Shown: piece by piece, positions 4,895-24,774 of the stretch | Layout of the letters: each line of letters starts with the position of its first letter | Position numbering within the stretch: the stretch's first letter is position 1 | Assembly: GCA_965205045.1 (NCBI GenBank) | Contig: OZ242032.1 | Span: 17,704 to 81,703, forward strand | Source of the DNA: Candidatus Rariloculaceae bacterium | GTDB lineage: Bacteria; Pseudomonadota; Gammaproteobacteria; Steroidobacterales; Rariloculaceae | Length of the DNA stretch: 64,000 nt | Reading direction: 5' to 3' | Position numbers and translations under genes: made by a program | The notes under the pieces: model-generated | The model's database searches: none | Seen by the model: the letters and a program-made list of their open reading frames with translations, nothing else | Told to the model about the DNA's origin: nothing

Positions 4895-5016
4895 CGTGGG
4901 GTCTCGTTTCGCTGGGTTCCGGGCGGCATCCTCCCCCGCCTGAAGGCGGGGGAGGCCGGCTACTGAGGGCGATGCCCCGCACGCCGAGCAGACCTGGGTT
5001 GAGAATGCCTCGCTGT

Positions 5017-6509: not shown

Positions 6510-6535
6510 GGGGGGGGGGGGGGGGGGGGGGGGGG
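6510..6535. repeat. Homopolymer G26 (+) / C26 (coding strand) in the 5' end of the SLP gene
   Basis: Counted directly as 6510-6535. Confirmed by the + strand ORF-track translation R-G8 (cgg + 8 ggg). Confidence 0.95.
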
Positions 6536-7047: not shown

Positions 7048-10000
7048 CTACTGCTTGGTCACGCCGAAGGCACCGATCATCTTGCCGGACGTGCCGTACG
7101 TCGAGTAGAACGTGCCAGTCCCGACCTTCGGTACACCGTCGTCGCCGTTGTTCCGGAGACTTCCGGTCCAATTGCCGTCGGCGGCGGCCTTATTTCCGTC
7201 GATGGTCCAGACCGTTCCATCCGTCGAATCACCGATCCCACCGGTGTCAGCAATGGGGGACCCATTCAACTCGACGGACCAAGAAGGCCGAGATTTGCCG
7301 TCCGCGCCCACGAACTGGTCGATGGTGCCGGTGATGGCGGCAGCGTCGGTATTGTTGGTGAAGTCGGCTTCGAGCGTTGCCCTGGCGGTGAAATGACCGG
7401 CGTCGTTCGTGCCGCCCGTATTACTGCTGAGCGCGTACTTGCCGGCAGCGCCGCCCGTGTAGGTCGCCGTTCCATTCAAGGCATTGAGACCAACGGCAGC
7501 GGCAACGGTGCCCACATCGTCCGTGAATACGCTTGCGGTGAACGTCTGGCCGTTTGCAGACTTGCGGATCCACCAGCCGTAGGACTCATAGTCGGCGTCC
7601 GGTGAACTCATCACCCGGGCGTTCGGGTCGGTGGGCTTGAAGGTCCAAATGGTATCACTGGCTGTAAATGTACTGTCAACCGCCGAAGCCACGCTGCCAA
7701 GCAGGAAGCCATCAGCGGCTACCTGGGAGGCGCATATGGTGTCGCCGGTAGGCGTGCAACTGTAGGTGCCGGACACGCCGTGGTACATGCCGGTAATCAT
7801 CACGGCGACGCTGTTCGCCGGCTTCTTGAAGCTCTTAACGCCAGCAGACTGGTCGAACATCGAACTGGCGACTCGCTCCTGGTTATCCGTATCGGTAGCC
7901 GTTGTGATGGTGAGCGCTCCGTCCGTCAACGAATACTCGAACTCGTTGTTTGCGGCCCCAGCGTGCCCGAACTTCTTCCCCGGGGTCGAGGCTTCGATAT
8001 TCGAGTAGACCATCGCCTCATACATCTCGCCGCCAGCGGGGTCAGCGTACCGCTTGCCTCTCCACCCATGGTTGGCGGGGACCATCGTCTTCTTGTCTTC
8101 CGACAGGGTGACGGCGGTAGCGGGCGCGGTCTCGCCAGTAAGGACTGCCGATACCAAGATGGCGGTACCAGCATCGTTGTAAGCGGCAGCTCGATCATCG
8201 GCGGCGGGGCTGGTAACATCACCAGTAGGCTCACTGATCCCCGCATACAGCTTCGCCGCATCCGCGGCGTTGGCCTCATTCATGGTCTTATCGGCAGCGG
8301 CCATCGCCGTCGTACGGCTCGTCTTGCGGGCGGCAAGCTGACCCTCGAGCGCGGTGGCGGTTCCCCTGTGCGCGTTCTTCACGGCATCCGACAAGCGGGT
8401 TGCATCGTCGATGGCGTCCTCGAGGTCCTCAATAGCCTCCTCAGCGGCCGTGACGACACTCTCTTCCGAGTCGTCCTTCACCTTTGCCACGGCGTCTTGC
8501 GCCGCCTTGATGGCGTCCGTGATGGCCATCATCTGCTGGCTGGTCTCAACCTGCTCCAGCGCAGGATCGACATGCTCTGCGGCCATCTCCCGACTCGACT
8601 CGGCAGCATCGATAGCATCCTGCGAGCCGTCGTTGTCCATCAGAACCATTTTCAGATTGGCGTACGCATCCCGGAGCGCCACGTAGGCATCGTGCTTCTC
8701 CTGGGCGGTCGAGGCGTCCGTCAACGCATCCACCATATCCTGCGCGTCGTCCACCATATCCTGCGCGCCGTTGATGGCATTCTCCCGAGCCTCTGCCAGC
8801 GCATTGGCCTTGCGGGTGATCTCCGCATCCAGCGCATCCGCGGCAATCCTCGCCCGCACGCTGGCCTCGATGGCGTAATTGACCTGCTCGGTCGTGCCGC
8901 CGTTCTCTCTCAGCACGTCGCGGTAAGCGTTCGCCGCGTTTTCGATCTGGCGCTGCGCAACCAGCTTGTCCTCGTCGCTGGCGTCCTCATCCAGATCCAT
9001 CAGCGCCATCTTGGCCGCGTCGAGCACAGCTTTGGCGGTGTTGATGTTTTCCATCCGCTGCATTTCCGCCGCCGCGGTCATCGCCATCTGGCGGCTGTTC
9101 TTGGCGGCAGCGAGAACGGTGGCGTGCGCGTTGACCGCCGAGGTATGCGCTGCCTTCTCCGCATCGGAAAGAGCGTCGGCGGCCGCGATGGCCGTCCTGG
9201 CGGCTGCAATCGCCGTATCCGCAGCCATGACCTGCGCATCAGAGGCGTCATTGTCCACCATGCCGACGGCGTCCATGGCGGTCTGAATCGCCGTCGTGAT
9301 GGCGTTACGCTGGTCAACGACCATCTGGCGCTGGTCGGCCTCTTCCTGCGCGGCGGTGATCGCCGCGTGCAGCTCGTCCGCCGCCATCTTGGCGTCCTCC
9401 TGCATGGCGGTGACATCCGCGATCTGCTCGGCCGTGCCGCCGTGCTCCGTCAGCACCTGGACCAAGTTGGCCGCTGCCATTTCAACGGCGCGCAGGGCGT
9501 CGCGCTTCGCTTCGTCGGTGGCGTCGTCACCCAACGCCGTCAACGCGTCTTCGGCCCCGGAGAGCGCCGTTTCCGCATCGTTGATGGCCATCATCCGGCG
9601 CTCTTCGGCGGCATTGGCCGCGGCGGTGATCTTCACGGTCAGATTGTCTGCCGCGATCTTCGCCGTCTGGGCCTTCAGGGTCGCCGCATCAATGTCGGCG
9701 CTGGAACCGCCGTACATCCGCAGGGCGTCGCGCAAGGCGGTCGCCGCCGCTTCGACCATGCGGTAGGCGTCGCGCATCGCTTCGTCGGTGGCGTCATCAC
9801 CCAGCGCCATCAACGCCGTCTCTTGCTTGGTGAGCGCTTGCCGCGCGGCGTCGATATGCGCCATGCGCTCCGCCTCGACGGCCGCGTCCATCGCCGCCAT
9901 GCGGCTGGCCTTGGCGGTGGCAAGCCGGGACATCAGCACGGTTACCGTTCCGGTGTTGGCGGCCGTCTCGGTTGCCGGCAGGTCGGTGGCAGCGGCGATG

Positions 10001-11925
10001 GCGGCCGTGGCGGCAGCAATCGCAGCGTCAGCGGCGCTGACAACCTCGTCACTGGAATCGTCCATCACCGCGGCAATCGCGGTACTCGCGGCGGCAATCG
10101 CGTCCGCGACGGCCTGACGCTGGTCGGCAAGCATCTGGGCCGCAGCAGCGGCATCGGCCGCTTCGGTGATCATCGCTTGCAGATTGTCCGCCATTGTCAT
10201 GGCGGAATCCCGCTTCGCGGTGGCGGCCGCGATCTGCTCGGCCGTGCCCTCGTTGTTCATCAGCGCCGTGATCAAAGCGGCGGCTGCCTGCTGGATAGCC
10301 CGGTGGGCGTCGCGTTTCGCTTCGTCGGTGGCGTCGTCAGCCAGCGCCATCAACGCCGCTTCGGCCTCGGTGAGGGCCGTCTGCGCCGTGTTGATGGCCG
10401 CCATGCGAGCCGCTTCGGCGGCCGCGGCGCGCGCGGCGATCGTCGCGCGCAGCGTCGCCGCCGCGTTCCTCGCTTCCAGGGCGATCTCGAACGCTGCGTC
10501 CCGCTGCGCATCCGTGCCGCCGTTCATCGCCAGCACGTTGCGCAACTCGGTCGCCGCGTCTGCGATCGCGGCCTGGGCCGCGAGCTTCTGCTCGTCGGTG
10601 GCGTCGTCACCCAACGCCATCAACGCCGCCTGCGCGGTCTCGAGGACCATCTCAGCGGCCTCGATATTCGCCATCCGCTGCGCCTGGGCGGCCGCCTCCA
10701 TCGCCGCCATGCGGCTGGCCTTGGCACTCTCGAGCTGGGCCGTCAGGGCGCTTACCGTTGCGCTGTTGGCGGTCTTCTCCGACGCCGGAACGTCGCTTGC
10801 GGCGGCGATCGCGGTCGTCACTTTCGCAATCTCGACACCGGCGGCAGCAATCTCCTCATCGGTGGAAGCGTTGCTCACGGCGCTGACCGCCATCTGAGCG
10901 GCGGCAATCGCATCCGCGATGGCCTGGCGCTGGTCGGCGAGCATCTGGGCCGCGGCTGCGGCCTCGGCCGCCTCAGTGATCATCGTGTCCAGACCGTCCG
11001 CCGTCGTCTTGGCGGAATCCCGCTGCGCCTCGGCGGCGGCGATCTGCTCGGCCGTGCCCTCGTTCTCCGTCAGCGCCGTAACCAGAGCGTCGGCGGCATG
11101 CTGAACGGCGCGCTGGGCGTCGCGCATCGCTTCGTCGGAGGCGTCTTCGGCCAACTCCGCCAACGCCGCAGCAGCGTCGTCAAGGCCCGTCTGCGCGGTG
11201 TTGATGGCCTCCGTCTGCGCCTCGGTCATGGCGGTGGCCGCATCGTTGATCATCTGCTGCAGCGCCGTCGCCTGGCGCCCCGCCTCCAGGGCGGTCGCGA
11301 ACGCTTCATCCTGCTGCGCATCCGTGCCGCCGTTCATCGCCAGCACGTTGCGCAAGGCGGTCGCCGCCGCTTCGATCCCGCGGTGGGCGTCGCGCTTCGC
11401 TTCGTAGGTGGCGTCGTCAGCCAGGCCCATCAACACCCCTTGGGCGGTGGCAAGGGCCATCTCAGCCTCGTTGATCGCTGCCGTTCGCGCCGCGGCTGCG
11501 GCCTCTTCGGCAGCCTTCTCACGGGCCGCTTCCTCAGCCGCCAGGCGAGCCGCTTCCGCTTCCTGCCGTTGCCGCTCGGCTTCTGCCGCGGCAGCCGCCT
11601 CACGGGCCGCTTCCTCAGCCGCCAGACGGGCCGCTTCCTCAGCCGCCAGGCGGGCAGCCTCTTCAGCCGCTGCCTCTTCGGCCGCTATGCGGGCCGCTTC
11701 TTCAGCCGCCAGGCGGGCAGCCTCTTCAGCCGCAGCCTCTTCGGCCGCCAGTCGGGCCGCTTCCTCAGCCGCCAGACGGGCCGCTTCTTCAGCCGCCGCC
11801 CTGTCCAGGGCCTCCTGGTGCGTCGACGGGCTCACGCCGTCGTCGCCGCCGCAACCGGCCAACACCATCGTGAGAACAAGCGCACCAACCAAAAGCGCCC
11901 ATCTGGATAATGTTTGTCGTGTCAT
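7048..11925 (-). CDS. Giant surface lipoprotein: lipobox, AAEEAARL stalk, four ~275-aa alanine-rich helical super-repeats, C-terminal TbpB-like handle + 8-strand barrel
   Basis: 1625 aa with lipobox VLTMVLAGCGGDDG. Eight DDATDEAKRDA-type modules and four ADQRQ..AKASRMAAM modules. C-terminus ..GTATYTGGAAGKYA..FTARATLEADF..ITGTIDQF..GTFYSTYGTSGKMIGAFGVTKQ. RBS aggaaggag lies 9 nt before the ATG. Confidence 0.85.
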   Translation of the reverse strand: MTRQTLSRWALLVGALVLTMVLAGCGGDDGVSPSTHQEALDRAAAEEAARLAAEEAARLAAEEAAAEEAARLAAEEAARIAAEEAAAEEAARLAAEEAARLAAEEAAREAAAAAEAERQRQEAEAARLAAEEAAREKAAEEAAAAARTAAINEAEMALATAQGVLMGLADDATYEAKRDAHRGIEAAATALRNVLAMNGGTDAQQDEAFATALEAGRQATALQQMINDAATAMTEAQTEAINTAQTGLDDAAAALAELAEDASDEAMRDAQRAVQHAADALVTALTENEGTAEQIAAAEAQRDSAKTTADGLDTMITEAAEAAAAAQMLADQRQAIADAIAAAQMAVSAVSNASTDEEIAAAGVEIAKVTTAIAAASDVPASEKTANSATVSALTAQLESAKASRMAAMEAAAQAQRMANIEAAEMVLETAQAALMALGDDATDEQKLAAQAAIADAATELRNVLAMNGGTDAQRDAAFEIALEARNAAATLRATIAARAAAAEAARMAAINTAQTALTEAEAALMALADDATDEAKRDAHRAIQQAAAALITALMNNEGTAEQIAAATAKRDSAMTMADNLQAMITEAADAAAAAQMLADQRQAVADAIAAASTAIAAVMDDSSDEVVSAADAAIAAATAAIAAATDLPATETAANTGTVTVLMSRLATAKASRMAAMDAAVEAERMAHIDAARQALTKQETALMALGDDATDEAMRDAYRMVEAAATALRDALRMYGGSSADIDAATLKAQTAKIAADNLTVKITAAANAAEERRMMAINDAETALSGAEDALTALGDDATDEAKRDALRAVEMAAANLVQVLTEHGGTAEQIADVTAMQEDAKMAADELHAAITAAQEEADQRQMVVDQRNAITTAIQTAMDAVGMVDNDASDAQVMAADTAIAAARTAIAAADALSDAEKAAHTSAVNAHATVLAAAKNSRQMAMTAAAEMQRMENINTAKAVLDAAKMALMDLDEDASDEDKLVAQRQIENAANAYRDVLRENGGTTEQVNYAIEASVRARIAADALDAEITRKANALAEARENAINGAQDMVDDAQDMVDALTDASTAQEKHDAYVALRDAYANLKMVLMDNDGSQDAIDAAESSREMAAEHVDPALEQVETSQQMMAITDAIKAAQDAVAKVKDDSEESVVTAAEEAIEDLEDAIDDATRLSDAVKNAHRGTATALEGQLAARKTSRTTAMAAADKTMNEANAADAAKLYAGISEPTGDVTSPAADDRAAAYNDAGTAILVSAVLTGETAPATAVTLSEDKKTMVPANHGWRGKRYADPAGGEMYEAMVYSNIEASTPGKKFGHAGAANNEFEYSLTDGALTITTATDTDNQERVASSMFDQSAGVKSFKKPANSVAVMITGMYHGVSGTYSCTPTGDTICASQVAADGFLLGSVASAVDSTFTASDTIWTFKPTDPNARVMSSPDADYESYGWWIRKSANGQTFTASVFTDDVGTVAAAVGLNALNGTATYTGGAAGKYALSSNTGGTNDAGHFTARATLEADFTNNTDAAAITGTIDQFVGADGKSRPSWSVELNGSPIADTGGIGDSTDGTVWTIDGNKAAADGNWTGSLRNNGDDGVPKVGTGTFYSTYGTSGKMIGAFGVTKQ

Positions 11926-12217: not shown

Positions 12218-12254
12218 TTGACAACGCTACAACAAGGCACTAGATTTTGTCAAC
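12218..12254 (+). promoter_or_regulatory. Putative promoter/operator of the RHH gene (TTGACAAC .. TTGTCAAC)
   Basis: TTGACA 12218-12223, 17-nt spacer, TAGATT 12241-12246. The second box TTGTCAAC is at 12247-12254. The same architecture occurs upstream of the paralog at 16813-16848. Confidence 0.4.
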
Positions 12255-12317
12255 ACACACACGCACAATTTTTGCTTCTACCCATCACACGCATCATGCG
12301 TCGGCAGGAGGCCACAA

Positions 12318-12548
12318 ATGGAACGCCGCACCAGGGGTATGGCCAACCGCACCGGGCGAGTCATGAACTCGGCCATGAACATTTCACTGCCCATCGAGCT
12401 GCACGAGGAGCTGCGGGAAATCGCGTGGGCGAACCGCATGCCGCTGTCGCACCTGTGCCGTGACCTGCTGCAGGAGGGCCTGGAGCGGCGACGGGAGCAG
12501 GAGGACGTCGAGGTGGAAACGTCGGCGTCGCCGACGATGCGGTACTAG
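12318..12548 (+). CDS. Ribbon-helix-helix (CopG/Arc-like) DNA-binding protein
   Basis: 76 aa with core MNISLPIELHEELREIAWANRMPLSHLCRDLLQEGL (strand-helix-helix pattern). GGAGG lies 7 nt before the ATG. Paralog at 16952-17197. Confidence 0.7.
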   Translation: MERRTRGMANRTGRVMNSAMNISLPIELHEELREIAWANRMPLSHLCRDLLQEGLERRREQEDVEVETSASPTMRY

Positions 12549-13010
12549 CGCTTGTGGGCATTTGAACCGTCGTCGTCTTGAAAAAACGTCTTTCCCGCCC
12601 TTCTTCTCGCAAACAGAATTTTTCGGATTTGCCGGCAGCGTATTGCGCCGCAACCGCCCACCGACGTGCAACCCGCATCATTCCTCCCCCGCTTTCGACA
12701 ACCCGCTACGCAACAGGCCAGTGCCGCGCCGCTCACGGCGTTGCCGCCTTGCGCCGGTCGTGACGAGTCCGGCGTCGCCGGGTCGCCACCGCGCCAAGTC
12801 CCTCAAGCAGAGCCTCCAAAGGATGGATGACTTATCACGAAGATCGAAGCTGCTTTTGTTGGCCGTGAGCGAAGCGGCGCCAGGGGCGCCGCGCAAGCGA
12901 AGCGAACGGCCAACAGCGAACAGGAACAGCACGCTGTCGCACCTGTTCCTCCTGTTCGCCCCTGTTCCAGAAAATTTCGTCTAGTATCTACGCAGGTTTC
13001 CGGGCGCAAA

Positions 13011-13098
13011 GTTGCCAGGGTAGACCGGTAAAGTTGTCAGGGTAGACCGGTGAGGTTGTCAGGGTAGACCGATAAAGTTGTCAGGGTAGATCGATCGG
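13011..13098. repeat. Four contiguous 22-bp iterons (putative replication origin)
   Basis: gttgccagggtagaccggtaaa / gttgtcagggtagaccggtgag / gttgtcagggtagaccgataaa / gttgtcagggtagatcgatcgg. They lie immediately 3' of the Rep-like gene. Confidence 0.8.
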
Positions 13099-13106
13099 CG
13101 CAGCAG

Positions 13107-13115
13107 TTTTCCACA
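13107..13115 (+). promoter_or_regulatory. DnaA-box-like site TTTTCCACA
   Basis: Matches the relaxed DnaA box TTWTNCACA and sits 9 bp from the last iteron. The identical 9-mer flanks the other iteron array at 23261 and 23485. Confidence 0.45.
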
Positions 13116-13131
13116 AGGCGGTTCAACCAGC

Positions 13132-14916
13132 TTACGGGACAGGCGGCCCGGCTCTGGGATTCGGTTCCAGGATGCGCCACAGCTTGTCGTCGCGTTCGAT
13201 GACGACGCGGCCGGCGGCTTCCAGGCGCTGAAGCAGCTCGTTGGCCTTGTTGCGTTCGCGGGCGTGGTTTGCCTTGTCGGGCTGCTCCTTGAGGCCGTAA
13301 GCCAGCTGCCGGCGCGCCTCGGGAGGCAGGGCCGGGACCTTGTCGGCTTGCGGGTGGCGCTCCTCCCCTTCCAGTACCGCTTGCGGGTGACGCCAGTCGC
13401 GTTGCGGCGCGTTGCCGGGCTTCCATGACAGCTTGCCGGCCTTCATGAACGGGTTGTCCGGATGGCCGAAGATCAGGTTGCCTTTGGCATCGACCAGGTA
13501 GCCTTGCGCGTCGCGCCGGGCTTTCGGGCGGGTGGCGTAGACGCGGAAGCCGCCGTTGCGCGCCTTGGCGGCGTCCCAGAGGTAGGCCAGCGACAGCCAC
13601 AAGTCGAAGGCCGGGTCGCTAATCCTGCCGTCGGCCACCAGGCCGGGAAAGTCCAGGGACGGCCCGCGGTCGGACAGGTCGGGCACCTCCAACTGGATCA
13701 CCGCGCGGCTGTCCAGGTCATAGGGATTCGGCATGCCGCGAGCAACGACGGGCCGCCAGGTTCGCCCGTCGGGAAGGCGGATTTTCGCCAGGGTGACGGC
13801 ATCGAAGGCGGCCTCCAGCGCCCTCGCATGCTTGTTGGGCCGCCAGGCGTCTTTGGTCCATAGCAGCTCGATCAGATCGCGCAGTGTCGGACGCCACTCG
13901 TAGCGGCCGCCGGGTCGTCTCTGCTCAAGCGGCATGGAGAGCAGCGAATAAATCAGGATTCGCTTGTCGAGCCGTGCCCCGCGTCCGAGCGTCAGGGCAC
14001 CGAAGCCGGCCGCGCCCGCCAGGACAAGGGGCGTCACCGGGGGCAGGTCACTTGTCGCGTCTGTCGTCGGAAGCAGGGCCAACTGCGACGATTCCGGTTT
14101 CTCGACGTACCCCGTCATCGGTAGAAACGACGGGTCATGCAACGGTTCATCGACGTAGATGGCGGAAGGCGCCGCATCGAGAAGGCCCTTGGGCATAATG
14201 CGGGCTTGTTTCGTCTCGGGTCTGAGGGCCTCGGGTCTCTGCTGCCACATGATGACCAGCGGGGTCAACGGATGGATCGGTTGGTCTTCACCGCCGCGCA
14301 GCCAGACAGAATGCACGGTTTCCAGGTTGACCATTGCCACGTTGTCGGGCGCGCCGTCGCCTGTAACCATCTTGTCCACATAGGCCATCAACCGGCGGGG
14401 CGGCGAATCGGGCTCTCCGTTGCCGCTGACGAGCCATGCGGCGCGGCGTCCCCACGTCGCCATGAGAAGCGTGTCGGCTGCCGCGCGCGCGTCACTCGGG
14501 CAGTCGTTGGTGACCCAGGTCGCCAAGGTCTCCATGTCCGGGATCATCTCGGGCGAACAGGTGGGCTGGATAAATCGCGCAACGGCCTCCAGGATTTCCG
14601 GCGCGGTGCAGGCGGTTTCAAGGCTGACGGTCGGGTGCGTGGCCGGGTCCTGCCCGGTCTCCATCGGCACCAGGTGCGCTTTTATCAGCCCTTCAGGCAA
14701 CCCGCCCATCCAGTCGCCTTGTGCCTGCCGGTCGCGGTGCTCATGGTAGTCGGGCGTGCCGCCGGGATAGGTAATGCGACGTATCTCCCAGTGTTTGTAC
14801 CCTGCCTTGTCTGCCTTGTAGGCGGTCACGGTGGGCTGCTCGCCTGCCGGATACGCCGTCTCGGCGGCGTCAACCGCCGAGTCTGCGGCCTCGCTAGAAT
14901 CGGTTGGCTTCATCAT
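13132..14916 (-). CDS. Putative replication initiator (large Rep-like protein); function inferred from adjacent iterons
   Basis: 594 aa from ATGATG 14916 (MMKPTDSSEAAD..). The longer track ORF start at 15054 runs through a repeat. The C-terminal half ..RYEWRPTLRDLIELLW..ALEAAFDAVTLAKIRLPDGRTWRPV.. looks winged-helix Rep-like to me. This was not verified by search. Confidence 0.55.
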   Translation of the reverse strand: MMKPTDSSEAADSAVDAAETAYPAGEQPTVTAYKADKAGYKHWEIRRITYPGGTPDYHEHRDRQAQGDWMGGLPEGLIKAHLVPMETGQDPATHPTVSLETACTAPEILEAVARFIQPTCSPEMIPDMETLATWVTNDCPSDARAAADTLLMATWGRRAAWLVSGNGEPDSPPRRLMAYVDKMVTGDGAPDNVAMVNLETVHSVWLRGGEDQPIHPLTPLVIMWQQRPEALRPETKQARIMPKGLLDAAPSAIYVDEPLHDPSFLPMTGYVEKPESSQLALLPTTDATSDLPPVTPLVLAGAAGFGALTLGRGARLDKRILIYSLLSMPLEQRRPGGRYEWRPTLRDLIELLWTKDAWRPNKHARALEAAFDAVTLAKIRLPDGRTWRPVVARGMPNPYDLDSRAVIQLEVPDLSDRGPSLDFPGLVADGRISDPAFDLWLSLAYLWDAAKARNGGFRVYATRPKARRDAQGYLVDAKGNLIFGHPDNPFMKAGKLSWKPGNAPQRDWRHPQAVLEGEERHPQADKVPALPPEARRQLAYGLKEQPDKANHARERNKANELLQRLEAAGRVVIERDDKLWRILEPNPRAGPPVP

Positions 14917-14983
14917 TTCACGTGTCCTGTCCAACGTTCGGGTACACGACGTCCGCTCGCAAAGCGCTGGCTGCGAAGCGCAA

Positions 14984-15027
14984 GGCGAGCAACGGGGCGC
15001 CGGTGGAAGTGACCATGAACCAGGGGC
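14984..15027. repeat. 44-bp direct repeat, copy 1
   Basis: ggcgagcaacggggcgccggtggaagtgaccatgaaccaggggc is identical to 15856-15899. Confidence 0.85.
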
Positions 15028-15066
15028 ACTGACATCCCGGCGCTGCCAAAACATATCGGCAGCGTA

Positions 15067-15240
15067 CTACGCCATGTCGCGGCAGCGGTGCAGGAACGCC
15101 CTGAGCACGGCGGCCTTGCCCGCATTGAGGTCGTCCAGGTAGACGCGGCAGGCGCGGCGCATCCTTCGACTGTGCTCGGCGGACTTCTTGCGGCGCTTGC
15201 CGTACAGCCTGGCGGCAAAGGAGGTGATAACGACTCGGAA
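15067..15240 (-). pseudogene. Relic of an IS607-family element (3' end of serine recombinase tnpA fused in frame to the first ~30 codons of a tnpB)
   Basis: My translation reads VVITSFAARLYGKRRKKSAEHSRR-MRRACRVYLDDLNAGKAAVLRAFLHRCRDMA*. Compare EIITVFSARLYGARSHKR (38889-39488) and EVMTSLCARLYGRRSARR (19881-20474). Confidence 0.6.
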
Positions 15241-15245
15241 GCTGG

Positions 15246-15437
15246 CTAGAGCGCCAGAATCAGCGGCGAGTAACCGTCAACACACTGGCCAAGGCCCCGA
15301 TGGCAAATGAGGCGGTAGAAAAGTCGATCTCCGTGATGGGCGGGATATTGTGGTTCTATAAGTTCGTCCGGGTCCGGTGATCCAAGGTCGCCCGATTCCC
15401 AACCGTCTGCGCCAGGGGATCCTGCGTTGGTCACCAT
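15246..15437 (-). CDS. Hypothetical 63-aa protein, translationally coupled to the upstream RHH-like gene
   Basis: TAATG stop/start overlap with 15437-15661. No recognisable motif. Confidence 0.3.
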   Translation of the reverse strand: MVTNAGSPGADGWESGDLGSPDPDELIEPQYPAHHGDRLFYRLICHRGLGQCVDGYSPLILAL

Positions 15438-15661
15438 TACTTACCGACGCCCCCTAGACCTGCGATAATGACCGACTCCACCGATCCGTTTTTGTTTCTA
15501 ATGAGCAATTCAGCTCCACCTTCAATCTTTCTGGTAATGCTCTCGGTGATCGCCAATGCGTTGCTCACGGTTGAGGCCTTGTTCCTCAGGTTCAGTCGAG
15601 TGGTGAGAATGTCGGTGTTACGGATGTCCCTATCCGTAAAGTTCATGGTCACCTTCTTCAT
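15437..15661 (-). CDS. Small RHH-like protein (possible antitoxin/repressor) in a low-GC cassette
   Basis: 74 aa MKKVTMNFTDRDIRNTDILTTRLNLRNKASTVSNALAITESI.. (strand-helix-helix pattern). RBS acggagag. Upstream direct repeats CTGTATA x2 and CTGGTAT x2. Visibly lower GC than the flanks. Confidence 0.55.
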   Translation of the reverse strand: MKKVTMNFTDRDIRNTDILTTRLNLRNKASTVSNALAITESITRKIEGGAELLIRNKNGSVESVIIAGLGGVGK

Positions 15662-15855
15662 GGCGAGTCTCTCCGTATCTAATGGCTTATACAGCTCGTA
15701 TACAGTTGAAATCAGTACATTACGACCCTATACCAGATACCAGAAATTTTCACCACTGCGGCACCCCCTCGTTCTTCGACAACCTCAGGAACGATCAGGA
15801 TCAGGCTTCGACAGGCTCAGCCGCCAGAGCCTGGCGGCGGCATGGCGCGGTGCAT

Positions 15856-15899
15856 GGCGAGCAACGGGGCGCCGGTGGAAGTGACCATGAACCAGGGGC
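15856..15899. repeat. 44-bp direct repeat, copy 2
   Basis: Identical to 14984-15027. Confidence 0.85.
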
Positions 15900-16015
15900 G
15901 CTGGAGAAGCCCTCGCATAGTGGTGCGGTACACCCAGGACAACGCGCCGAGCGTTGCACTTTCTTATCTGTGCTGAGTGGCACTCGTACGGTCGAGGCGG
16001 ACGGACAGGTTGCGC

Positions 16016-16687
16016 TTATCCGTGCGGTTTCCGTGTCGCAGCGCCGGTTCCAGGACGGAACGTCTTTCCGCTGATCACATCCAGGTAAATCCGGTTGTCC
16101 TCATGCAGACCCCCGCAATATGTAACGTAGACCGCCCTGCCACGTGCGGTTGAACGCGCCCATCCGCCCAGGCGCTCGAAGTCCGCGATGGTGCACCGTT
16201 GCCGCGAAATAAGCGTCCACGCCGCTACCAGAAACCTTGATCTGTACTTGTGGGCGTCGTCCGATTTGTCTATCGCCCTGACCAGGGCCGGGCTGTAAGA
16301 GCTGACACGCACGGGCGTGCCTGCGGGTCTCGTATCAGACAGATAGGCAGACGCCACCCAGCGGGCCACCCGGCGTGACGTTCCTTCAACCAACCCGCCG
16401 TAGTATCGAGAAATACGAGACCATCCGCCGTGCACCCCCAGAACGTCCACTCTTTGCCCGCGGTCCAATACGCTAACGACCTTTGCGGAGAGACTGGGCG
16501 CAAGCCGGACGTTCAACCGATCGGCTGTAACATAGGCCGTAAGAGCGGGAACCGCCTCATCTCCTACGGTCCCGTCAACACCCCGTTGCCGCTGCAAGCC
16601 GGGCGCGTTGTCACGACCACGGCCTGAGCAACCCGCCACCGCCACGCAAACGATAACGATCAGAAACAGGCAGGTCCGGTTCCGCAT
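16016..16687 (-). CDS. Lipoprotein with SH3b-like domain
   Basis: MRNRTCLFLIVIVCVAVAGCSG (lipobox VAGC). SH3b-like stretch YVTADRLNVRLAPSLSAKVVSVLDRGQRVDVLGVHGGWSRI. Confidence 0.7.
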   Translation of the reverse strand: MRNRTCLFLIVIVCVAVAGCSGRGRDNAPGLQRQRGVDGTVGDEAVPALTAYVTADRLNVRLAPSLSAKVVSVLDRGQRVDVLGVHGGWSRISRYYGGLVEGTSRRVARWVASAYLSDTRPAGTPVRVSSYSPALVRAIDKSDDAHKYRSRFLVAAWTLISRQRCTIADFERLGGWARSTARGRAVYVTYCGGLHEDNRIYLDVISGKTFRPGTGAATRKPHG

Positions 16688-16812
16688 GATCAAATGATCC
16701 TTCTCTTGAGGAACCTGCTACTGCGGACACGCCGCATCGTCAAAGTTGACATCCTCCGCCTTGCCGCCGTCGACTTCTCTGGCCACCCAGGTTTCCTGGA
16801 GATCGAACTTGT

Positions 16813-16848
16813 TTGACAACATAACTTGACATACTTATATTCGTCAAC
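16813..16848 (+). promoter_or_regulatory. Putative promoter/operator of the second RHH gene
   Basis: TTGACA 16813-16818, 17-nt spacer, TATATT 16836-16841, and box TCGTCAAC at 16841-16848. Parallels 12218-12254. Confidence 0.45.
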
Positions 16849-16951
16849 AATGGTCATCTATTTTTTTCAGCCTTCAGGCAGTGGATTTTTGATTGCGGAT
16901 TTTTGATTGTGGATTGAAAAATCAGAAATCCCCACAACAGGAGCGACCCCG

Positions 16952-17197
16952 ATGGACGACATGGACTTTACCGACCTGCACCGGCGCAACAGCCGCATGC
17001 TGGGGCGGCGCGCCAACTCCCAAATGAACATCTCGCTGCCGATCGAGCTGCACGAGCAACTGCGGGACATCGCATGGAACAGGCGCATCTCGCTGTCGCA
17101 CCTGTGCCGCGTGCTGCTGGTGAAGGGCCTGGAGATCTGGGAGACGGAGCAAGGAGCGAAATGGGAGAAGGCGCGGGCGGATGCGGAGGGCGAATAG
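16952..17197 (+). CDS. Ribbon-helix-helix DNA-binding protein, paralog of 12318-12548
   Basis: MDDMDFTDLHRRNSRMLGRRANSQMNISLPIELHEQLRDIAWNRRISLSHLCRVLLVKGLE.. AGGAG lies before ATG 16952. Confidence 0.7.
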   Translation: MDDMDFTDLHRRNSRMLGRRANSQMNISLPIELHEQLRDIAWNRRISLSHLCRVLLVKGLEIWETEQGAKWEKARADAEGE

Positions 17198-17216
17198 GGT
17201 CTTCACGAGGTAGAAG

Positions 17217-17255
17217 CCCTGCACCGGGTTCGTCGCCCTTGTGCGGGGTTTTTTT
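17217..17255 (+). terminator. Rho-independent terminator candidate
   Basis: ccctgcac (17217-24) pairs with gtgcgggg (17241-48, one G-U) and is followed by T7 (17249-55). It lies 20 nt after the RHH gene stop. Confidence 0.5.
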
Positions 17256-17522
17256 GCGCCCGTTCGCCGGTGGCGCGCGAGCCGCGCGCAAACGCCCCTG
17301 ATCCGGCAGGCGCCATGAGGCACCGCCTCACCACCCGCCTGGACCGCCCCATAAGTCCCTCCGGGGGACTGCCGCCTTCAGGCGTCCTTCGACAATCCTG
17401 AGCCGAGTCGAAGGATCAGGAGGGGGATAGGAGGTTGTCGGAAGCGACTCGATGCCGCTTTTGGCAACATGCCTTGAGTTATTTTCTTGCCAATTAAATA
17501 CCATGTCGGCTATACTGGCTGC

Positions 17523-17933
17523 ATGGTTGATCAACGCTTCCGCAAAAACGCCGGTGCCGTCTTCGCGCTCAAGTATCACGTCGTCTGGTGCCCCAAATAC
17601 CGACTGCCCGTATTGGTCGGGGCTGTTGCCGAAAGGCTCAAGGCACTGCTCAGCGAAAAGGCCGACGAGATGGAAGGCATCATCCGGGCGATGGAGGTCA
17701 TGCCGGACCACGTGCACCTGTTCGTGGACATGCCGCCCACGTTGGCGCCTGCGCATATCGTCAACCAGTTCAAGGGATGGACGTCCCGCATGTTGCGCCA
17801 GGAGTTCCCCCACCTTGTCAGCCGCATGCCGACCCTTTGGAGCCGTTCCTACTACATGGGCAGCGTCGGGCACGTCTCCGACGCCACGGTGCGTCGCTAC
17901 ATCGAGGGCCAGAAGAAAGGCCGAGGCAAGTAG
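17523..17933 (+). CDS. tnpA: IS200/IS605 Y1 (HUH) transposase
   Basis: ..FALKYHVVWCPKYR..MPDHVHLFVDMPP..LWSRSYYMGSVG.. carries the HUH and catalytic Tyr motifs. 136 aa from ATG 17523. Confidence 0.85.
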   Translation: MVDQRFRKNAGAVFALKYHVVWCPKYRLPVLVGAVAERLKALLSEKADEMEGIIRAMEVMPDHVHLFVDMPPTLAPAHIVNQFKGWTSRMLRQEFPHLVSRMPTLWSRSYYMGSVGHVSDATVRRYIEGQKKGRGK

Positions 17934-19050
17934 ATGCGCAAAGCGTTCAAGTTCCGGCTCTACCCCACTCGCAAGCAGACCGAGGCCCTGGACCGCGAGC
18001 TTACGGCGGCACAAAGGCTTTACAACGCCGCCCTGCAGCAACGCCGGTTCGCCTGGCAGCGCCGCCACGTCTCGCTCAACTACAACGCCCAGGCTGGCGA
18101 CCTCAAGGACCTGCGCGCCAGCGGCGCCCCGACACCCGCCAACTTCAGCGCCTGCCAGGACGTTCTGCGGCGCCTCGACAAGGCGTTCCAGGCATTCTTC
18201 CGACGGGTGAAGTCCGGCGGCAAGCCCGGCTTTCCGCGCTTCAAGTCGCGGGACCGCTACGACTCCCTCACGTTTCCGTCCTATGGCGACGGCTGCCGCA
18301 TCCGCGACAATGGCAAGCTCTACCTGCAAGGTGTCGGCGAAGTCCGCGTCAAGTGGCACCGCCAGATCGCTGGCAAGATCAAGACCGCGACCGTGCGTCG
18401 CCGCGGCGGGCGCTGGCACGTCTGCTTCAGCGTCGAATACGACCCCGAGCCGCTGCCAACTATGGAAGGGGAGGTCGGAATCGACGTTGGCCTGGATCAC
18501 TTCGCTGCGCTCAGCACGGGCGACCTGACACCCAACCCCCGCTGGTACAGGAACGCTCAGAAGCGCTTGCGACGGGCGCAGCGCAAGGTGGCACGCCGCG
18601 TCAAGGGGTCGAACGGCCGCCGCAAGGCCGTATGGGAGCTGCAGCGCGTTCACGAGCATATCGCCAATCAACGGGCTGATTTCGTGCATAAGTTGTCTCG
18701 ACAGATCGTTGACGGCTACCAACTTATTGCCGTTGAAAAGCTCAACATCGGCGGCATGGCCAAAGGCATGCTTGCCAAGTCGATACACGATGCGGCGTGG
18801 CGTTCCTTTCTGGAAAAACTCATCGTCAAAGCGGCAGAGGCTGGGCGACGAGTGGTGGAAGTGAACCCGGCCGGGACGAGCCAGCATTGCCTGTGCGGCT
18901 GCGAAGTCCGCAGCCCTTCGACTCCGCTCAGGACTGGCCGTCCGGGTGCATCGCTGTCCTGAGTGCGGCCTTGTTGCCCCGCGCGATGTGGTGTCCGCAC
19001 AGTTGATCCTACGGCTCGAACGGAGCCTTGCGAGCGCTAACGTAGCCTGA
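17934..19050 (+). pseudogene. tnpB: TnpB (IS605 OrfB, RuvC-like) with +1 frameshift in the zinc-finger region
   Basis: MRKAFKFRLYPTRKQ..IDVGLDHFAA..IAVEKLNIGGM..NPAGTSQHCLCGCEVR, then an aberrant tail and stop at 18962. The expected continuation VHRCPECGLVAPRDVVSAQLIL is in frame +1 from 18946 to TGA 19050. A REP-like motif cccttcgactccgctcaggactgg lies at the break. Confidence 0.7.
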
Positions 19051-19880: not shown

Positions 19881-20474
19881 ATGGATGTTACCAGCAAACG
19901 CATAGGCTTGACGGCATGGGGCCGTCTGTACGGGTTTGACAAGGCGACGACGTCGAGGCTGCACCATACAGGTAAGCTGCCGGCCGGACTTCAGATCGAG
20001 CAACTGCCCAACGGGCGCTACTACGTCATTGTGCCGCCGGAGCAGTTAGGTCGGTGCGTGGTCTACGCGCGGGTTTCGTCCGCAGACCAGAAAGAGGACC
20101 TGGACCGCCAGGTAGGGCGCATCACCGAATGGGCGACGAAGGAAGGGTATCTGCCGAGTGAAGTCGTCAAGGAGGTCGGGTCTGGTCTGAACGGTAACCG
20201 CCGGGGTCTCCGAAAGCTGCTGGGCGACCATGCGGTGAGCACGATCATCGTGGAACACCGTGAGCGCCTGTGTCGCTTCGGCTTCGAGTACGTGGAAGCC
20301 GCTCTGACCGGCCGGGGCGCGCGCGTGGTCGTCATGGAAGACGAGGAAGTTGAAGACGACCTGGTGCGGGACGTGACCGAGGTGATGACGTCGCTTTGTG
20401 CGAGGCTCTACGGCAGGCGTTCGGCGCGGCGTCGTGCCGAGCGTGCGGTTGCGGCGGCGAGGGAGGCGGGATGA
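19881..20474 (+). CDS. tnpA: IS607-family serine recombinase (MerR-like HTH + resolvase catalytic domain)
   Basis: ..CVVYARVSSADQKEDLDRQ..VEHRERLCRFGFEY..LCARLYGRRS.. Confidence 0.85.
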   Translation: MDVTSKRIGLTAWGRLYGFDKATTSRLHHTGKLPAGLQIEQLPNGRYYVIVPPEQLGRCVVYARVSSADQKEDLDRQVGRITEWATKEGYLPSEVVKEVGSGLNGNRRGLRKLLGDHAVSTIIVEHRERLCRFGFEYVEAALTGRGARVVVMEDEEVEDDLVRDVTEVMTSLCARLYGRRSARRRAERAVAAAREAG

Positions 20475-22153
20475 TCGCCACCTACCAGACTCGGATTGCG
20501 GCGTACGCTGACCTCGGTCGTGCCGCCGGGGATGCAGTGCTTGATGCGTACGGAGAGCTATACGGGCGTGTGCAGCGCAAGTTGTTTGCAGATATGGCAG
20601 GGGGTCATTCTGCGCCCTCGCTGAAGAGCGAGTACCTGGAGCGCTACGGCATCCCGGCACGCATGTTTAATGCGGTTCGGGTGTCGCTGGAAGGCAAGGT
20701 TGCCTCTGTCCGGGAGAGTCAGAAGCTGCGCCTTGACGACCTCCTTCGGCGTATTGCCCGTGCAAAAAAGCAGATTGCGAAGGCGAAGAAGCGTGGGCGT
20801 CTGGACCAGGCACACCACAAGCGCCGCAGGCTGGCGGGCCTGGAACACCAGCGGATGGAACTGGAAGCTGAGTCGAAGGCGGGCCTGGTTCGTCTTTGCT
20901 TCGGGTCGAAGGCGCTTTGGCACAAGCAGCATCATCTTGGGGAAAACGGTTACGCCAGCCATGACGAGTGGCTGGAGGACTGGCGTAGCTCTCGCACGGG
21001 TGAGTTCTTCGTGCTGGGGAGCCGGGACGAGACAGCCGGCTGCCAGTTGTGCGTGGCTGCCGTCGCGGACGATGGGTCACTGACGCTTCGTCTTCGCATG
21101 CCGGACAGCCTAGCCGGTGAGCACGGCAAGTATGTCACCATCGAAGGCGTACGGTTTGCCTATGGACACGAGCAGGTGCTGGCGGCTCTTGAGAGCAATG
21201 CTGAGTACGCCGCTTACCGTCGTGAACGTGGCGAGAAGGCGGCACGAGTGACCGATCTGGGTCAGGCCATCAGCTACCGGTTCAAACGCGACGCCAAAGG
21301 CTGGCGGGTATTCGTTACGACGGAGACCGTGGATGTCCCGGTGGCGACAGATCGTAAACGTGGCGCCATTGGCGTTGATCTGAACGCCGATCACCTGGCG
21401 GTTGCCGAGACCGATGCGTCGGGAAACTATGTTCATGCGTTCAGTGTGCCGCTGGTCACTTGTGGCAAGTCCAGGCATCAGGCCGAGGCTCTCATCGGTG
21501 ATGCCGTTGCCCGTATCGTTGATTACGCCAAAGGGGTTGGCAAGCCCATCGTGATGGAGCGGTTGGACTTCCGCAACAAGAAGTCAAGGCTCGAAGGCGA
21601 GTCGCGCAAGTATGCCCGGATGCTGTCGAGTTTCGGTTATGGCAAGACACAGGCTTGCTTGCTTTCTCGGTGTCACCGTGAGGGTGTTGGTATTCACCGG
21701 GTCAACCCGGCTTTCAGTTCAGTCGTTGGTCGGGTGAAATTCATGGAGAGATATGGGCTCAGCGTTCACCAGGCATCGGCCCTGGTGCTGGCCCGCAGGT
21801 TGCTTGGCTGTTCCGAGCGCATTCCGCGCCGGTGGGTAGCCCCTGTCGGCAATGGCGGCCGTGTCGCCTTCCGCGTACCCGTGAGGAAGCGCGTGAAGCA
21901 CGTATGGACGTACTGGGGTGCGATCTCGGGGCAGCTGAGACCGGCGCTTGCAGCGCATCACCGGCTGGGGAAGTCGAGAGACGGCCCCAATCCGATTCAG
22001 GCGTTCGTTCGGGCTGTGGCTCGCGGGGATAGCCTGGGTGGGGACCCGTTCGGTGTTTCCGGGCGCGATTCCCGGACGGAGTCGCCTTGCACAGTTGGGG
22101 CGGCGGCGCGGCTACACCCGCGTCTTTGGAAATGGTTTGGCAGCAGTCTGTGA
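20471..22153 (+). CDS. tnpB: TnpB-related IS607 accessory protein (RuvC-like; long N-terminal coiled region, no obvious zinc finger)
   Basis: 560 aa from ATG 20471. ..GAIGVDLNADHLAVAE..PIVMERLDFRNKK..VNPAFSSVVGRVKFMERYGLSVHQASALVLARR.. Confidence 0.75.
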   Translation: MIATYQTRIAAYADLGRAAGDAVLDAYGELYGRVQRKLFADMAGGHSAPSLKSEYLERYGIPARMFNAVRVSLEGKVASVRESQKLRLDDLLRRIARAKKQIAKAKKRGRLDQAHHKRRRLAGLEHQRMELEAESKAGLVRLCFGSKALWHKQHHLGENGYASHDEWLEDWRSSRTGEFFVLGSRDETAGCQLCVAAVADDGSLTLRLRMPDSLAGEHGKYVTIEGVRFAYGHEQVLAALESNAEYAAYRRERGEKAARVTDLGQAISYRFKRDAKGWRVFVTTETVDVPVATDRKRGAIGVDLNADHLAVAETDASGNYVHAFSVPLVTCGKSRHQAEALIGDAVARIVDYAKGVGKPIVMERLDFRNKKSRLEGESRKYARMLSSFGYGKTQACLLSRCHREGVGIHRVNPAFSSVVGRVKFMERYGLSVHQASALVLARRLLGCSERIPRRWVAPVGNGGRVAFRVPVRKRVKHVWTYWGAISGQLRPALAAHHRLGKSRDGPNPIQAFVRAVARGDSLGGDPFGVSGRDSRTESPCTVGAAARLHPRLWKWFGSSL

Positions 22154-22918
22154 CTAAAGTCAACCATTTTTACAACGGTCACGGAGAGCTTTCCGGTCGC
22201 CTGCAGCGGGGTGACGTGCGTCGGCGCCGGCGTAACCCTTGACCTGGAAGCCGTCAACCTGACGGACCTCATTGATCCCAACATCGACCTCCCTGTAAGC
22301 GAAGCCAATCTCCAGTCACGGGAGGATGGATTCGACACCGTGTTTGTCAAGGGAAAGCTGGATGCCTCGGGCATTGACGCCGCAGACATTCAGGTGCTGC
22401 TTCCTGACATCACGGTCACCGACATTCCGGAGGCCTTGGGCTACGGGTTTTGGGGAGAGCACGGCGCGGCGGGCCTGGCCCTTGCGGACGGTCCCTTCTC
22501 CGGCCGAGCCAGCGACCTCATCCCGTTCAGCGGTGACATGAAGGTGGTCATCCCCTTCGCGCTCGGCGACGTTTCCGGCACGAATCCCCGCGGTCCCGGA
22601 AGCGCAACCTGGGCCGGCATTGCCGAAGTTGTCGCCGTCCGCACCTTCAGGCGTCAAGAGGGACTTGCAATCCTGACGATTCCGGACTTGTCACAGCCCA
22701 CCGTCAACGTCGGGATCGAGGTTGCCGGAAATCCGATCGGCAAACCCGGCTGGACGGACATGTCTCTGGTCGACGGCCGTTTCGTGTCCGGGGCCGCTGG
22801 CCATGACTACCTGGAGGGGAATTTCTACGGCGTGGATAACAGCGAGGCTTACGGCGTCTTTGATACCGATAATTTCACCGGCGCTTTCGGGGCGAAACGA
22901 AAAGCAGAGGGCGAGTAG
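22154..22918 (+). pseudogene. 5'-truncated TbpB-barrel surface lipoprotein gene (C-terminal barrel only, no signal peptide)
   Basis: The frame opens at 22154, directly after the tnpB stop. Track ORF from GTG 22211. ..GSATWAGIAEVVAVRT..GLAILTIPDL..VNVGIEV..YLEGNFYGVDNSEAYGVFDTDNFTGAFGAKRK.. Confidence 0.65.
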
Positions 22919-23260: not shown

Positions 23261-23493
23261 TTTTCCACAGGTTTGCCTGCTCCTATTACTAGCAAATATT
23301 ACTTTACAGGATAATTACAGGATTTAGGGGGGGGTGATTTAACGAGAAAAAGGGGGGCGATTTAACGAGAAAAGGGGGGGTGATTTAACGAGAAAAGGGG
23401 GGCGATTTAACGAGAAAAGGGGGGGTGATTTAACGAGAAAAGGGGGGGGCGATTTAACGTGGAAAACTTCCCGGCATCACAGAGTTTTCCACA
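23261..23493. other. oriV-like region: DnaA box, AT-rich stretch, six iterons, DnaA box
   Basis: TTTTCCACA at 23261-69 and 23485-93. AT-rich tcctattactagcaaatattactttacaggataattacaggattta at 23281-23326. Iterons at 23327-23466. It lies next to the 3' end of repA. Confidence 0.75.
23327..23466. repeat. Six contiguous 22-25-bp iterons G6-8(T/C)GATTTAACGAGAAAA
   Basis: Read directly. The T and C variants alternate, and the last unit is degenerate (..aacgtggaaaa). Confidence 0.9.
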
Positions 23494-23547
23494 GGCCCCC
23501 CCGGACGATTTCCGCCCTGTTTTTCCCAGGGATGTTGTGAGAGGAAG

Positions 23548-24754: not shown

Positions 24755-24774
24755 ATATGTAAATCCTCATCTGA

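Follow-up and report, generated by a model that had tools for sequence, protein, structure and literature searches.

The 64,000-nucleotide (nt) stretch of contig OZ242032.1 from a Candidatus Rariloculaceae bacterium that was analysed here (the window) contains an ordinary plasmid replicon of the RepA_C type and, separate from it, a large gene without family assignment (rep, 13132-14916, minus strand) that is followed by short tandem repeats. This locus raises the question whether rep and its repeats form a replicon of their own and, if so, whether the two ribbon-helix-helix (RHH) genes found on either side mark its borders, as a preliminary description of the DNA had proposed. Our analysis indicates that the region 12857-14916 is very probably an iteron-type (theta) plasmid replicon built on an initiator from a large undescribed family. 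Judged from sequence comparison, the rep-origin unit is real and intact, it is of the iteron kind, and its initiator family is undescribed yet widespread. Read along its own strand, rep is followed by a DnaA box, four iterons of 22 bp, a short tract rich in A/T, three phased GAACAG repeats that take part in a first hairpin (HP1), and HP2, a second hairpin, which is GC-rich. Plasmid-sized contigs binned to several phyla keep this combination of gene and origin. The iteron theta replicon is already known as a class; what is new is the initiator family together with the additional conserved elements of the origin.

The four iterons (13011-13098; consensus AAAGTTGTCAGGGTAGACCGGT on the plus strand) lie 33 nt from the rep stop codon and repeat with a period of exactly 22 bp. 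Tandem Repeats Finder calls the array at 13008-13090, with period 22, 3.8 copies and 90% matches. The 17-nt iteron core GTTGTCAGGGTAGACCG is present in four copies with at most one mismatch, and no other copy occurs in the 64 kb at up to three mismatches; the chance expectation is 0.14, and four copies were reached in none of 100 shuffled sequences. Between the stop codon and the array lies the DnaA-box-like 9-mer TTTTCCACA (13107-13115, plus strand), of which the window holds exactly three copies against 0.26 expected (three reached in 0 of 100 shuffles), all of them beside iteron arrays. The preliminary description had placed the four iterons and the 9-mer by the 3′ end of a 594-aa open reading frame (ORF) and had seen a GAACAG/CTGTTC cluster at 12916-12968; all of these are present where and as it had described them, and so are the copies of TTTTCCACA that it had noticed around the other iteron array (23261-23269 and 23485-23493). 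Weak iteron-like 12-mers elsewhere in the window (for instance at 15133-15144), with two mismatches each, numbered eight against about three matches expected by chance and were set aside as unconvincing.

The product of rep, the candidate replication initiator (Rep), is 594 aa long and belongs to an unannotated family. Its start codon is backed by the alignment of homologs, in which the start of the homologs matches that of the window protein (MEPxDF aligned with MMKPTD); because the homologs begin at the equivalent methionine, an upstream start yielding 640 aa is unlikely. Scans against Pfam, NCBIfam and PHROGs gave no match for the protein, and neither did single-protein and profile searches of the PDB sequences. 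Rep was also not found by tblastn against PLSDB plasmids and phage genomes or by a scan of IMG/VR. When 34 Rep homologs were scanned one by one against Pfam, no family could be assigned and no transposase, integrase or nuclease family was matched; the sole recurring match, WDGH (5 of the 34 members, E of at least 0.12), was rejected as a Rep domain and treated as noise. The preliminary description had been unable to name the large protein, and after these hidden Markov model (HMM) searches and the structure searches reported below it still has no family assigned. Its relatives are numerous. Fifty-seven close homologs were recovered from a metagenome protein collection, and a profile search through 1.84 billion cluster representatives defined a family of 1264 clusters at 50% identity (E<=1e-3), 831 of them at E<=1e-10; the sole source label carried by these relatives is 'hypothetical protein'. 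The N-terminal part of the alignment is variable, and the C-terminal half (aa 289-594; 13135-14052, minus strand), the proposed iteron-binding region, is strongly conserved, with 36 invariant columns. Conserved motifs of the family include GRGARLDKR, SDPAFDLxLxLAYLWD and NGGxRIYATRP.

The association of rep with the repeats was then evaluated at related loci, 24 of which came from a scan of one genome per species and the others from exact look-ups. Arrays with a 22-bp period follow rep in 23 distinct loci including the window, and in 18 of the 23 the array starts 0-120 nt past the stop codon. In L002 (5517-7157) and L010 (1030-2557) the cognate 22-bp array is displaced by about 1.4-1.6 kb from the rep stop; L002 agrees with L001 as far as the DnaA-box-like site and not beyond it, which suggests that its origin has received an insertion. 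The arrays of L004 are at +364 and +666. In L013 the best-scoring array is at +197, and the repeats already start about 12 nt past the stop codon. The rep gene of L020 looks frameshifted, its array lying about 50 nt past the end of the protein match. Only L018, L021, L022, L023 and L024 lack an array of this period; the protein match is partial or very distant in four of them, and three are located on contigs of megabase size. The iteron cores fall into three classes, CTACCCTG..AAC, GATGGTGCAA and CGAACCCTG, that correspond to the clades formed by the C-terminal domain of Rep (Mantel r 0.75, permutation p 2e-4), a correlation to which shared descent of the neighbouring DNA contributes. The DnaA box is likewise clade-bound: a similar box is found 16-19 nt past the stop codon in seven of seven members of the window's clade and is absent from the other clades. 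A constant period and position, with uniform copies within each array, across about 50% protein divergence is the behaviour that would be expected of iterons with a cognate initiator.

Beyond the iterons, the loci share an origin core. At all loci examined, and in all three iteron classes, the order 3′ of the iterons is an A-rich tract, two or three GAACAG repeats spaced 9-10 bp apart, HP1 and HP2. In the window, the spacer next to the iterons (12969-13010) includes an A/T-rich tract, GAAATTTTC, that may belong to the unwinding region; a similar A-rich tract (ACCAGAGAGAAAA, or GAAATTTTC in the window's clade) occupies the equivalent position in most loci. The GC content of the spacer is about 0.55 against a background of 0.64, with a minimum of 0.40 over 40 nt. 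It is followed by the cluster at 12916-12968, in which three direct GAACAG repeats with 9-10 bp spacing precede inverted CTGTTC copies, and which is kept in all three iteron classes. HP1 (12916-12959) is formed by the GAACAG repeats and the inverted CTGTTC copies, and directly abuts HP2 (12857-12915), a GC-rich palindrome. Across the loci HP1 consists of the last GAACAG repeat or repeats and one or two inverted CTGTTC copies.

Support for the two hairpins comes from folds of the individual sequences with shuffle z-scores. The 121-nt HP1+HP2 element of the window folds with a z-score of -3.9 on one strand and -4.4 on the other, and values of -2.8 or lower were obtained in 12 of 15 other loci. 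The weaker folds, those of L001, L028 and L029, all belong to the window's clade, with its longer HP2, and the 112-nt folding window cuts HP2 in L001 and L028. The sequence of HP2 is unrelated between clades and a long stem is always formed, while in L009, L011, L013 and L017 both arms of HP1 are altered together. RNAalifold predicted no pairs on a MAFFT alignment of the origin core, in which the stems are out of register. On the rep strand the hairpins are followed by A-runs and not by T-runs, and they are thus not canonical terminators for either of the convergent genes. An Rfam scan of 11.9-17.4 kb gave no match.

Most rep loci are on contigs of 10-170 kb. The bins that contain rep belong to Dehalococcoidia, Caldilineaceae, Thalassobaculaceae and other Alphaproteobacteria, Binatia, Gemmatimonadota and Vicinamibacterales; for several of them, bin names such as SB0662_bin and RHO1_bin suggest sponge metagenomes. 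Contig OY760735.1 (L014/L015; 23,101 bp), designated 'chromosome 2' of a Vicinamibacterales metagenome-assembled genome (MAG), consists of a 9,605-bp unit in perfect 2.4-fold concatenation, and this unit is therefore probably a small circular plasmid that was assembled as a multimer. Besides the Rep homolog, its genes comprise those of a tyrosine recombinase and a Dam methylase, together with small ORFs. Weak matches below the cut-off were obtained to DUF3102 and to a Zn-finger/Toprim domain, the Toprim-like gene preceding rep. In the Pfam scan of the unit the Rep homolog and several small genes had no match, and no other initiator candidate and no ParA were detected. In three further loci, L001, L027 (54 kb, hifiasm name ending in 'c') and L028 (55 kb, '_c'), the gene order is parA, a gene for an 84-85-aa protein, rep and iterons, which parallels that of the window's RepA_C replicon (parA, parG, repA, iterons). 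The suffixes of L027 and L028 presumably denote circular assemblies. Arrays with no parA nearby are present in the window, L025 and L015.

These contexts bear on two other explanations of the repeats. The array could serve as a partition centromere or regulatory array, the large protein being a centromere-binding or regulatory protein, since in L001, L027 and L028 rep comes third in an apparent operon, behind parA and a small gene, and since Rep contains winged-helix-like modules (see below). We hold this to be very unlikely. The three operons already encode an 84-85-aa protein at the usual position of the centromere-binding protein, and these parA-rep contexts, together with the arrays that persist with no nearby parA (window, L025 and the 9.6-kb plasmid), argue against a centromere. 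Such a function would furthermore leave the 9.6-kb plasmid without any initiator, and a DnaA box and a clamp-type motif suit replication better than partition. Alternatively, Rep might be a transposition or integration protein and the 22-bp repeats its end-binding sites. Sites of 22 bp in multiple copies are characteristic of Tn7 and Mu ends, clamp motifs occur in transposases, and the window is rich in mobile elements. However, the array is a single one of head-to-tail copies, and the absence of a second, inverted array from the 64 kb argues against transposon ends; no transposase, integrase or nuclease family is matched by Rep; and the gene-array unit takes the parA-rep position on plasmid-sized contigs. 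Of the explanations considered here, this one appears to us the most improbable. The data are better accounted for by a replicon whose initiator is Rep.

AlphaFold2 (AF2) models had a mean predicted local distance difference test (pLDDT) score of 72.7 for full-length Rep and of 82.2 for aa 289-594. The latter model is composed of helix-strand-helix-helix-hairpin modules that are winged-helix-like in the order of their elements. Foldseek at E<=1e-3 retrieved nothing from the PDB (full-length and C-terminal models) or from BFVD (full-length model); the weak local matches are mostly to winged-helix proteins, namely MukE, ESCRT-II, ArsR/MarR and the ScpA winged-helix domain, and RepE54 ranks 33rd (E=2). 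The linker that precedes the conserved C-terminal half contains QLALL (aa 278-282; 14071-14085, minus strand), the window's version of a QLxL[FL] motif. In 37 of 89 members this motif is located 30-34 aa before GxGARxDKR, in one more it is 54 aa before it, and 25 more have relaxed variants. Residues L279 and L281 are at least 90% conserved in the Rep alignment, and the linker is modelled with pLDDT <50. The motif agrees with the bacterial beta-clamp-binding consensus. In TrfA of plasmid RK2, QLSLF (residues 134-138), N-terminal to the DNA-binding domains, binds the beta clamp (PMC8034659). By resemblance to the consensus and to TrfA, QLxL[FL] is a lead to a putative clamp-binding site of the Rep family.

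Several points weigh against the proposal that 12857-14916 is an iteron replicon with Rep as its initiator. The winged-helix assignment is suggestive, based as it is on the order of predicted secondary-structure elements and on Foldseek matches with E of about 1. The comparison of Rep by hhalign with the RepA_C alignment built from the window's second initiator returned a probability of 0.2-0.3%; given this value and the lack of a significant fold match, Rep is filed in no known Rep family, and it has no demonstrable membership in any of them. Motifs that bind the clamp are also described for transposases (PMC4549789). Besides the contribution of shared descent to the correlation between iteron class and Rep clade, the A/T-rich tract is short and moderately A/T-rich, and it may be the phased GAACAG repeats that take the role of an unwinding element. 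When GC skew is summed along the window, the minimum falls between the two origins and hence singles out neither. The phylum assignments rest on MAG binning and may be wrong for plasmids. Finally, the module is missing from a sibling of the window. This sibling, L030 (ena:ERZ25068633:ctg158717_9x_c, 94.9 kb; the suffix '_c' probably marks a circular contig), has at 3500-5438, when set against window 12877-15400, no rep, iterons or DnaA box, and an IS605/IS607-type TnpB gene is found instead of window 12961-15400. It keeps RHH1 (100% aa identity), the spacer, HP2 and GAACAG/HP1, and homology resumes at window 15401. As L030 lost rep and the iterons, the module appears dispensable when another replicon is present, and the comparison fits a multi-replicon plasmid that carries a dispensable module.

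The other replicon of the window (23261-25410, minus strand) is an ordinary one of the RepA_C type. It comprises, all on the minus strand, parA (24775-25410), a parG-like RHH gene (24542-24754), the RepA_C gene repA (23548-24492) and six iterons of about 23 bp (23329-23466) flanked by DnaA boxes (23261-23269 and 23485-23493). Its RepA is 70-77% identical to the RepA of known proteobacterial plasmids and matches 1102 PLSDB records. The window thus holds two separate iteron-type modules, at 12.86-14.92 kb and 23.3-25.4 kb, as had been proposed from the first inspection of the DNA, and the plasmid-like nature that was proposed with them finds support in its gene content: no housekeeping genes were found, and it encodes transposases, integrases and other products of mobile elements, a methylase-HNH gene, Slam/surface-lipoprotein cargo, sulfotransferases and a P450, while the sibling contig is of 94.9 kb and its name ends in '_c'. 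A second ParA-like gene (28795-30546, plus strand) is separate from the parA of the RepA_C replicon; its product is an ATPase of the ParA/AAA_31 type whose N-terminus is extended by about 270 aa with no family match.

The presence of two modules opens the possibility that the rep-iteron unit is silent or redundant: the plasmid would replicate from the RepA_C origin at 23.4 kb, and the unit, brought in for instance by co-integration, would be a passenger that does not fire in this host. At a distance of 10 kb from the unit there is indeed a classical RepA_C replicon, complete and equipped with parA and parG; the rep gene of the window lacks the preceding parA-parG genes seen in L001, L027 and L028; no sigma-70-like promoter was found directly upstream of rep; and L030 has neither rep nor iterons at the equivalent position. 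Against this, the unit shows no decay. Its Rep ORF has the full length, with 90% identity to P0001; no iteron core has more than one mismatch; and both the origin core and the DnaA box are intact. The closest relative, L025, shares window 14893-12858 (rep and origin) at 91% DNA identity and, further on, window 12573-11606 at 80%. We consider a silent unit a minority possibility, though one to be taken seriously, and favour a functional replicon at 12857-14916.

Whether the RHH genes belong to this replicon was the second question. RHH1 (12318-12548, plus strand) encodes a 76-aa RHH-like protein and is convergent with rep; its paralog RHH2 (16952-17197, plus strand) encodes 81 aa. The shared core reported for them is real, the two genes being 80% identical in DNA over 120 nt and 73% identical in protein over 44 aa. 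Their matches to known families are weak and below the cut-off (RHH_5, E 0.002-0.008; ORF56, E 1e-4 to 9e-4). The matching promoter boxes claimed before both genes were also recovered. The promoter and putative operator of RHH1 (12218-12255) has TTGACAAC at 12218-12225, then 22 nt, then TTGTCAAC at 12248-12255, with the promoter TTGACA-17-TAGATT on the plus strand. The RHH2 promoter region (16813-16848, both strands) has TTGACAAC at 16813-16820 and TCGTCAAC at 16841-16848, with TTGACA-17-TATATT on the plus strand and TTGACG-18-TATGTT on the minus strand. The RHH1 and RHH2 promoters are the two best sigma-70-like sites in 11.9-17.4 kb; the placement of the boxes is non-random, though the count of TTGACAAC alone is at chance (2 found versus 1.1 expected). 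Because an opposite-strand promoter overlaps at RHH2, the 'inverted boxes' there are both -35 hexamers. We rejected the TTGACAAC boxes as Rep half-sites, for which the 7-mer TGACAAC shared with the reverse complement of the iteron had made them candidates: L025 keeps the box, and its iterons differ at this place. Between the RHH2 promoter and start codon, 2.4 copies of a 14-bp tandem repeat, GGATTTTTGATTGC, are found at 16883-16915, with a single ATTTTTGCTT at RHH1 and at its L025 counterpart. A terminator-like hairpin with a T-run (17235-17249) follows RHH2.

The distribution of the RHH homologs points away from the replicon. An HMM of the paralogs detected no counterpart in the rep loci L001-L024, and an RHH homolog beside rep was found in L025/L026; RHH1 is next to the origin only in the window, the sibling L030 and L025/L026. 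The segment that L025 shares at 12573-11606 covers RHH1, its promoter and the start of the surface-lipoprotein gene, and RHH2, like all of the DNA upstream of rep, lies outside the block conserved in L025. Homologs of RHH1 in three other loci (L032-L034, around 5001-5228) are genes for 71-76-aa RHH proteins divergent from a gene for a surface protein of 750-830 aa, the C-terminal part of which is homologous to the 1625-aa lipoprotein of the window. These cassettes keep the inverted pair TTGAC(A/G)A...T(T/C)GTCAA, with the same layout in L025, and contain two overlapping divergent sigma-70-like promoters whose -35 boxes form an inverted repeat. No rep gene was found in the approximately 5 kb examined on each side of these homologs. 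Since the RHH homologs travel with divergent surface-lipoprotein genes and without rep, they are probably cargo regulators. The conserved unit would be an RHH gene plus a divergent surface-protein gene, and by synteny the partners appear to be the surface lipoprotein for RHH1 and the SH3 lipoprotein for RHH2. In our model RHH1 and RHH2 would be autoregulated repressors acting on overlapping divergent promoters.

The preliminary description had instead read the paralogs as CopG/ORF56-like copy-number or transcription controllers that mark the borders of the replicon. This is unlikely in our view, even though the matches to ORF56 (E 1e-4 to 9e-4, far below the cut-off) and RHH_5 hint at such a function, RHH1 adjoins the origin in the window and in L025, and the RHH2 boxes overlap the one promoter-like site seen on the minus strand upstream of rep. 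RHH1 and rep are convergent, the 24 other rep loci have no RHH homolog, the homologs in L032-L034 stand beside surface-lipoprotein homologs with no rep in the flanks examined, and RHH2 is not part of the block shared with L025. The claim that the RHH genes form the edges or regulators of the replicon is therefore not supported, and the bracketing is most likely coincidental. RHH2 is located 2 kb upstream of rep on the opposite strand, and its minus-strand promoter points toward the SH3 gene (16016-16693), a 74-aa gene (15437-15661) and rep. Within 11.9-17.4 kb, the sequence immediately before rep contained no sigma-70-like promoter. The three genes share the minus strand and the search upstream of rep turned up no other promoter-like site, so that RHH2 might, as a speculation, control rep by read-through from this distal promoter.

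A small insertion appears to separate the SH3 gene from rep. Here a segment of low GC (0.48-0.55 versus 0.64) lies between two copies of a 59-nt direct repeat (14973-15031 and 15845-15903), which are 92% identical and share an exact core of 44 nt; the 74-aa gene within the segment (15437-15661, minus strand) has a weak match to phrog_8557. On the other side of the replicon lies the cargo. The surface lipoprotein is a 1625-aa alanine-rich and highly repetitive protein (7048-11925, minus strand) with a lipoprotein-type signal (LAGC), and a gene for a Slam (SlipAM) translocon (2528-3937, minus strand) is also near the replicon; at the equivalent position L025 (4448-11446) encodes an 884-aa TbpB-like lipoprotein and two Slam genes. 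A small TbpB-like ORF occurs at 22211-22918 (plus strand), and 26 consecutive G residues were noticed at 6510-6535. Further away, Golgi phosphoprotein 3-like (GPP34) and cytochrome P450 domains are joined in one ORF (43070-45133, plus strand) that adjoins two sulfotransferase genes (40856-43049). Mobile elements are found at 17487-18962, 19881-22153, 36047-37261, 37663-38892, 46636-49524 and 61442-63871. The types represented are IS200/IS605 TnpA+TnpB, an IS607-like serine recombinase with TnpB, two further TnpB genes, and the Tn3 family, with one complete transposase and a second ORF that has an N-terminal DUF4158 domain only. Two Integrase_1 genes are at 34664-35689 and 54598-55473.

A mechanism can be outlined for the replicon at 12857-14916. 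The C-terminal half of Rep (aa 289-594), with its winged-helix-like modules, would bind the iterons, which are phased two helical turns apart. This binding would open the neighbouring A-rich tract and the GAACAG region, with assistance of DnaA in the window's clade, to which the DnaA box is confined. The beta clamp would be recruited through the QLxLF-type linker motif, in the way that TrfA uses QLSLF, and HP1 and HP2 might serve as structure-specific signals for priming or helicase loading. Going further, we tentatively raise the idea, which we judge more doubtful than probable, that Rep represents a new class of multi-domain initiators, in which the GAACAG and twin-hairpin core would be recognised by the initiator as the signal for opening and priming, the clamp would be recruited through QLxLF, firing would be free of DnaA in most clades, and the hosts would range from Chloroflexota to Proteobacteria.

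If this is true, it would be a replicon that naturally crosses phyla among uncultured, largely sponge-associated bacteria. Many environmental plasmids are untypable because their initiators are unknown; the Rep family, with 1264 clusters and none of them in PLSDB, provides a replicon type that can be named, and the signature of its origin could be used to find and type plasmids in metagenomes. Provided that the binning is right, the replicon is also a candidate for genetic tools in Caldilineaceae, Dehalococcoidia, Vicinamibacterales and Gemmatimonadota. The GAACAG repeats, the twin hairpins and the clamp-type motif offer handles on how a non-canonical initiator opens DNA and recruits the replisome.

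Comparison with known systems helps to position the unit. The RHH genes resemble CopG and ORF56 in encoding small RHH-like proteins with a putative operator that overlaps their own promoter; unlike those regulators, they are neither co-transcribed with rep nor conserved along with its family, and they are linked to divergent surface-lipoprotein genes. With RepA_C replicons (PF04796) the rep-iteron units share the succession of parA, a small RHH or partner gene, rep and downstream iterons, as well as TTTTCCACA beside the iterons. The two differ in the protein: the profile probability is the 0.2-0.3% given above, 1102 PLSDB records match the RepA_C protein versus 0 for the window Rep, and the latter is about twice as long. 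The oriV of the IncQ plasmid RSF1010 consists of iterons, a spacer and two hairpin elements that are the priming signals ssiA and ssiB, and the origin described here is similar in its short array of iterons (about 20-22 bp), its spacer and its two hairpin-forming elements. In contrast to IncQ, the hairpins of the window are adjacent and are not arms of one large inverted repeat. IncQ replication moreover needs RepC, the RepA helicase and the RepB' primase, whereas in the window neither rep nor the adjacent genes showed a helicase or primase domain, and a weak Toprim-like gene is found only in the 9.6-kb plasmid.

Two large initiators complete the comparison. RctB of Vibrio chromosome 2 has winged-helix domains resembling those of plasmid initiators (PMC5397143). 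The 50 best Foldseek matches listed, all of them non-significant, include no RctB structure, and the repeat types and the regulation differ; Rep is nevertheless comparable to RctB as a large (about 600-660 aa) multi-domain initiator that would bind repeated sites. As to TrfA and oriV of the RK2/IncP plasmids, no sequence or fold similarity to TrfA was detected, and the origin of the window is directly 3′ of rep. RK2 oriV has A/T-rich 13-mers, and the window origin has phased GAACAG repeats and two hairpins instead. The two systems are alike in iterons phased at about 22 bp with adjacent DnaA boxes, in initiators with more than two protein domains, and in a QLxLF-type motif placed N-terminal to the DNA-binding domains, which in Rep are the predicted ones.

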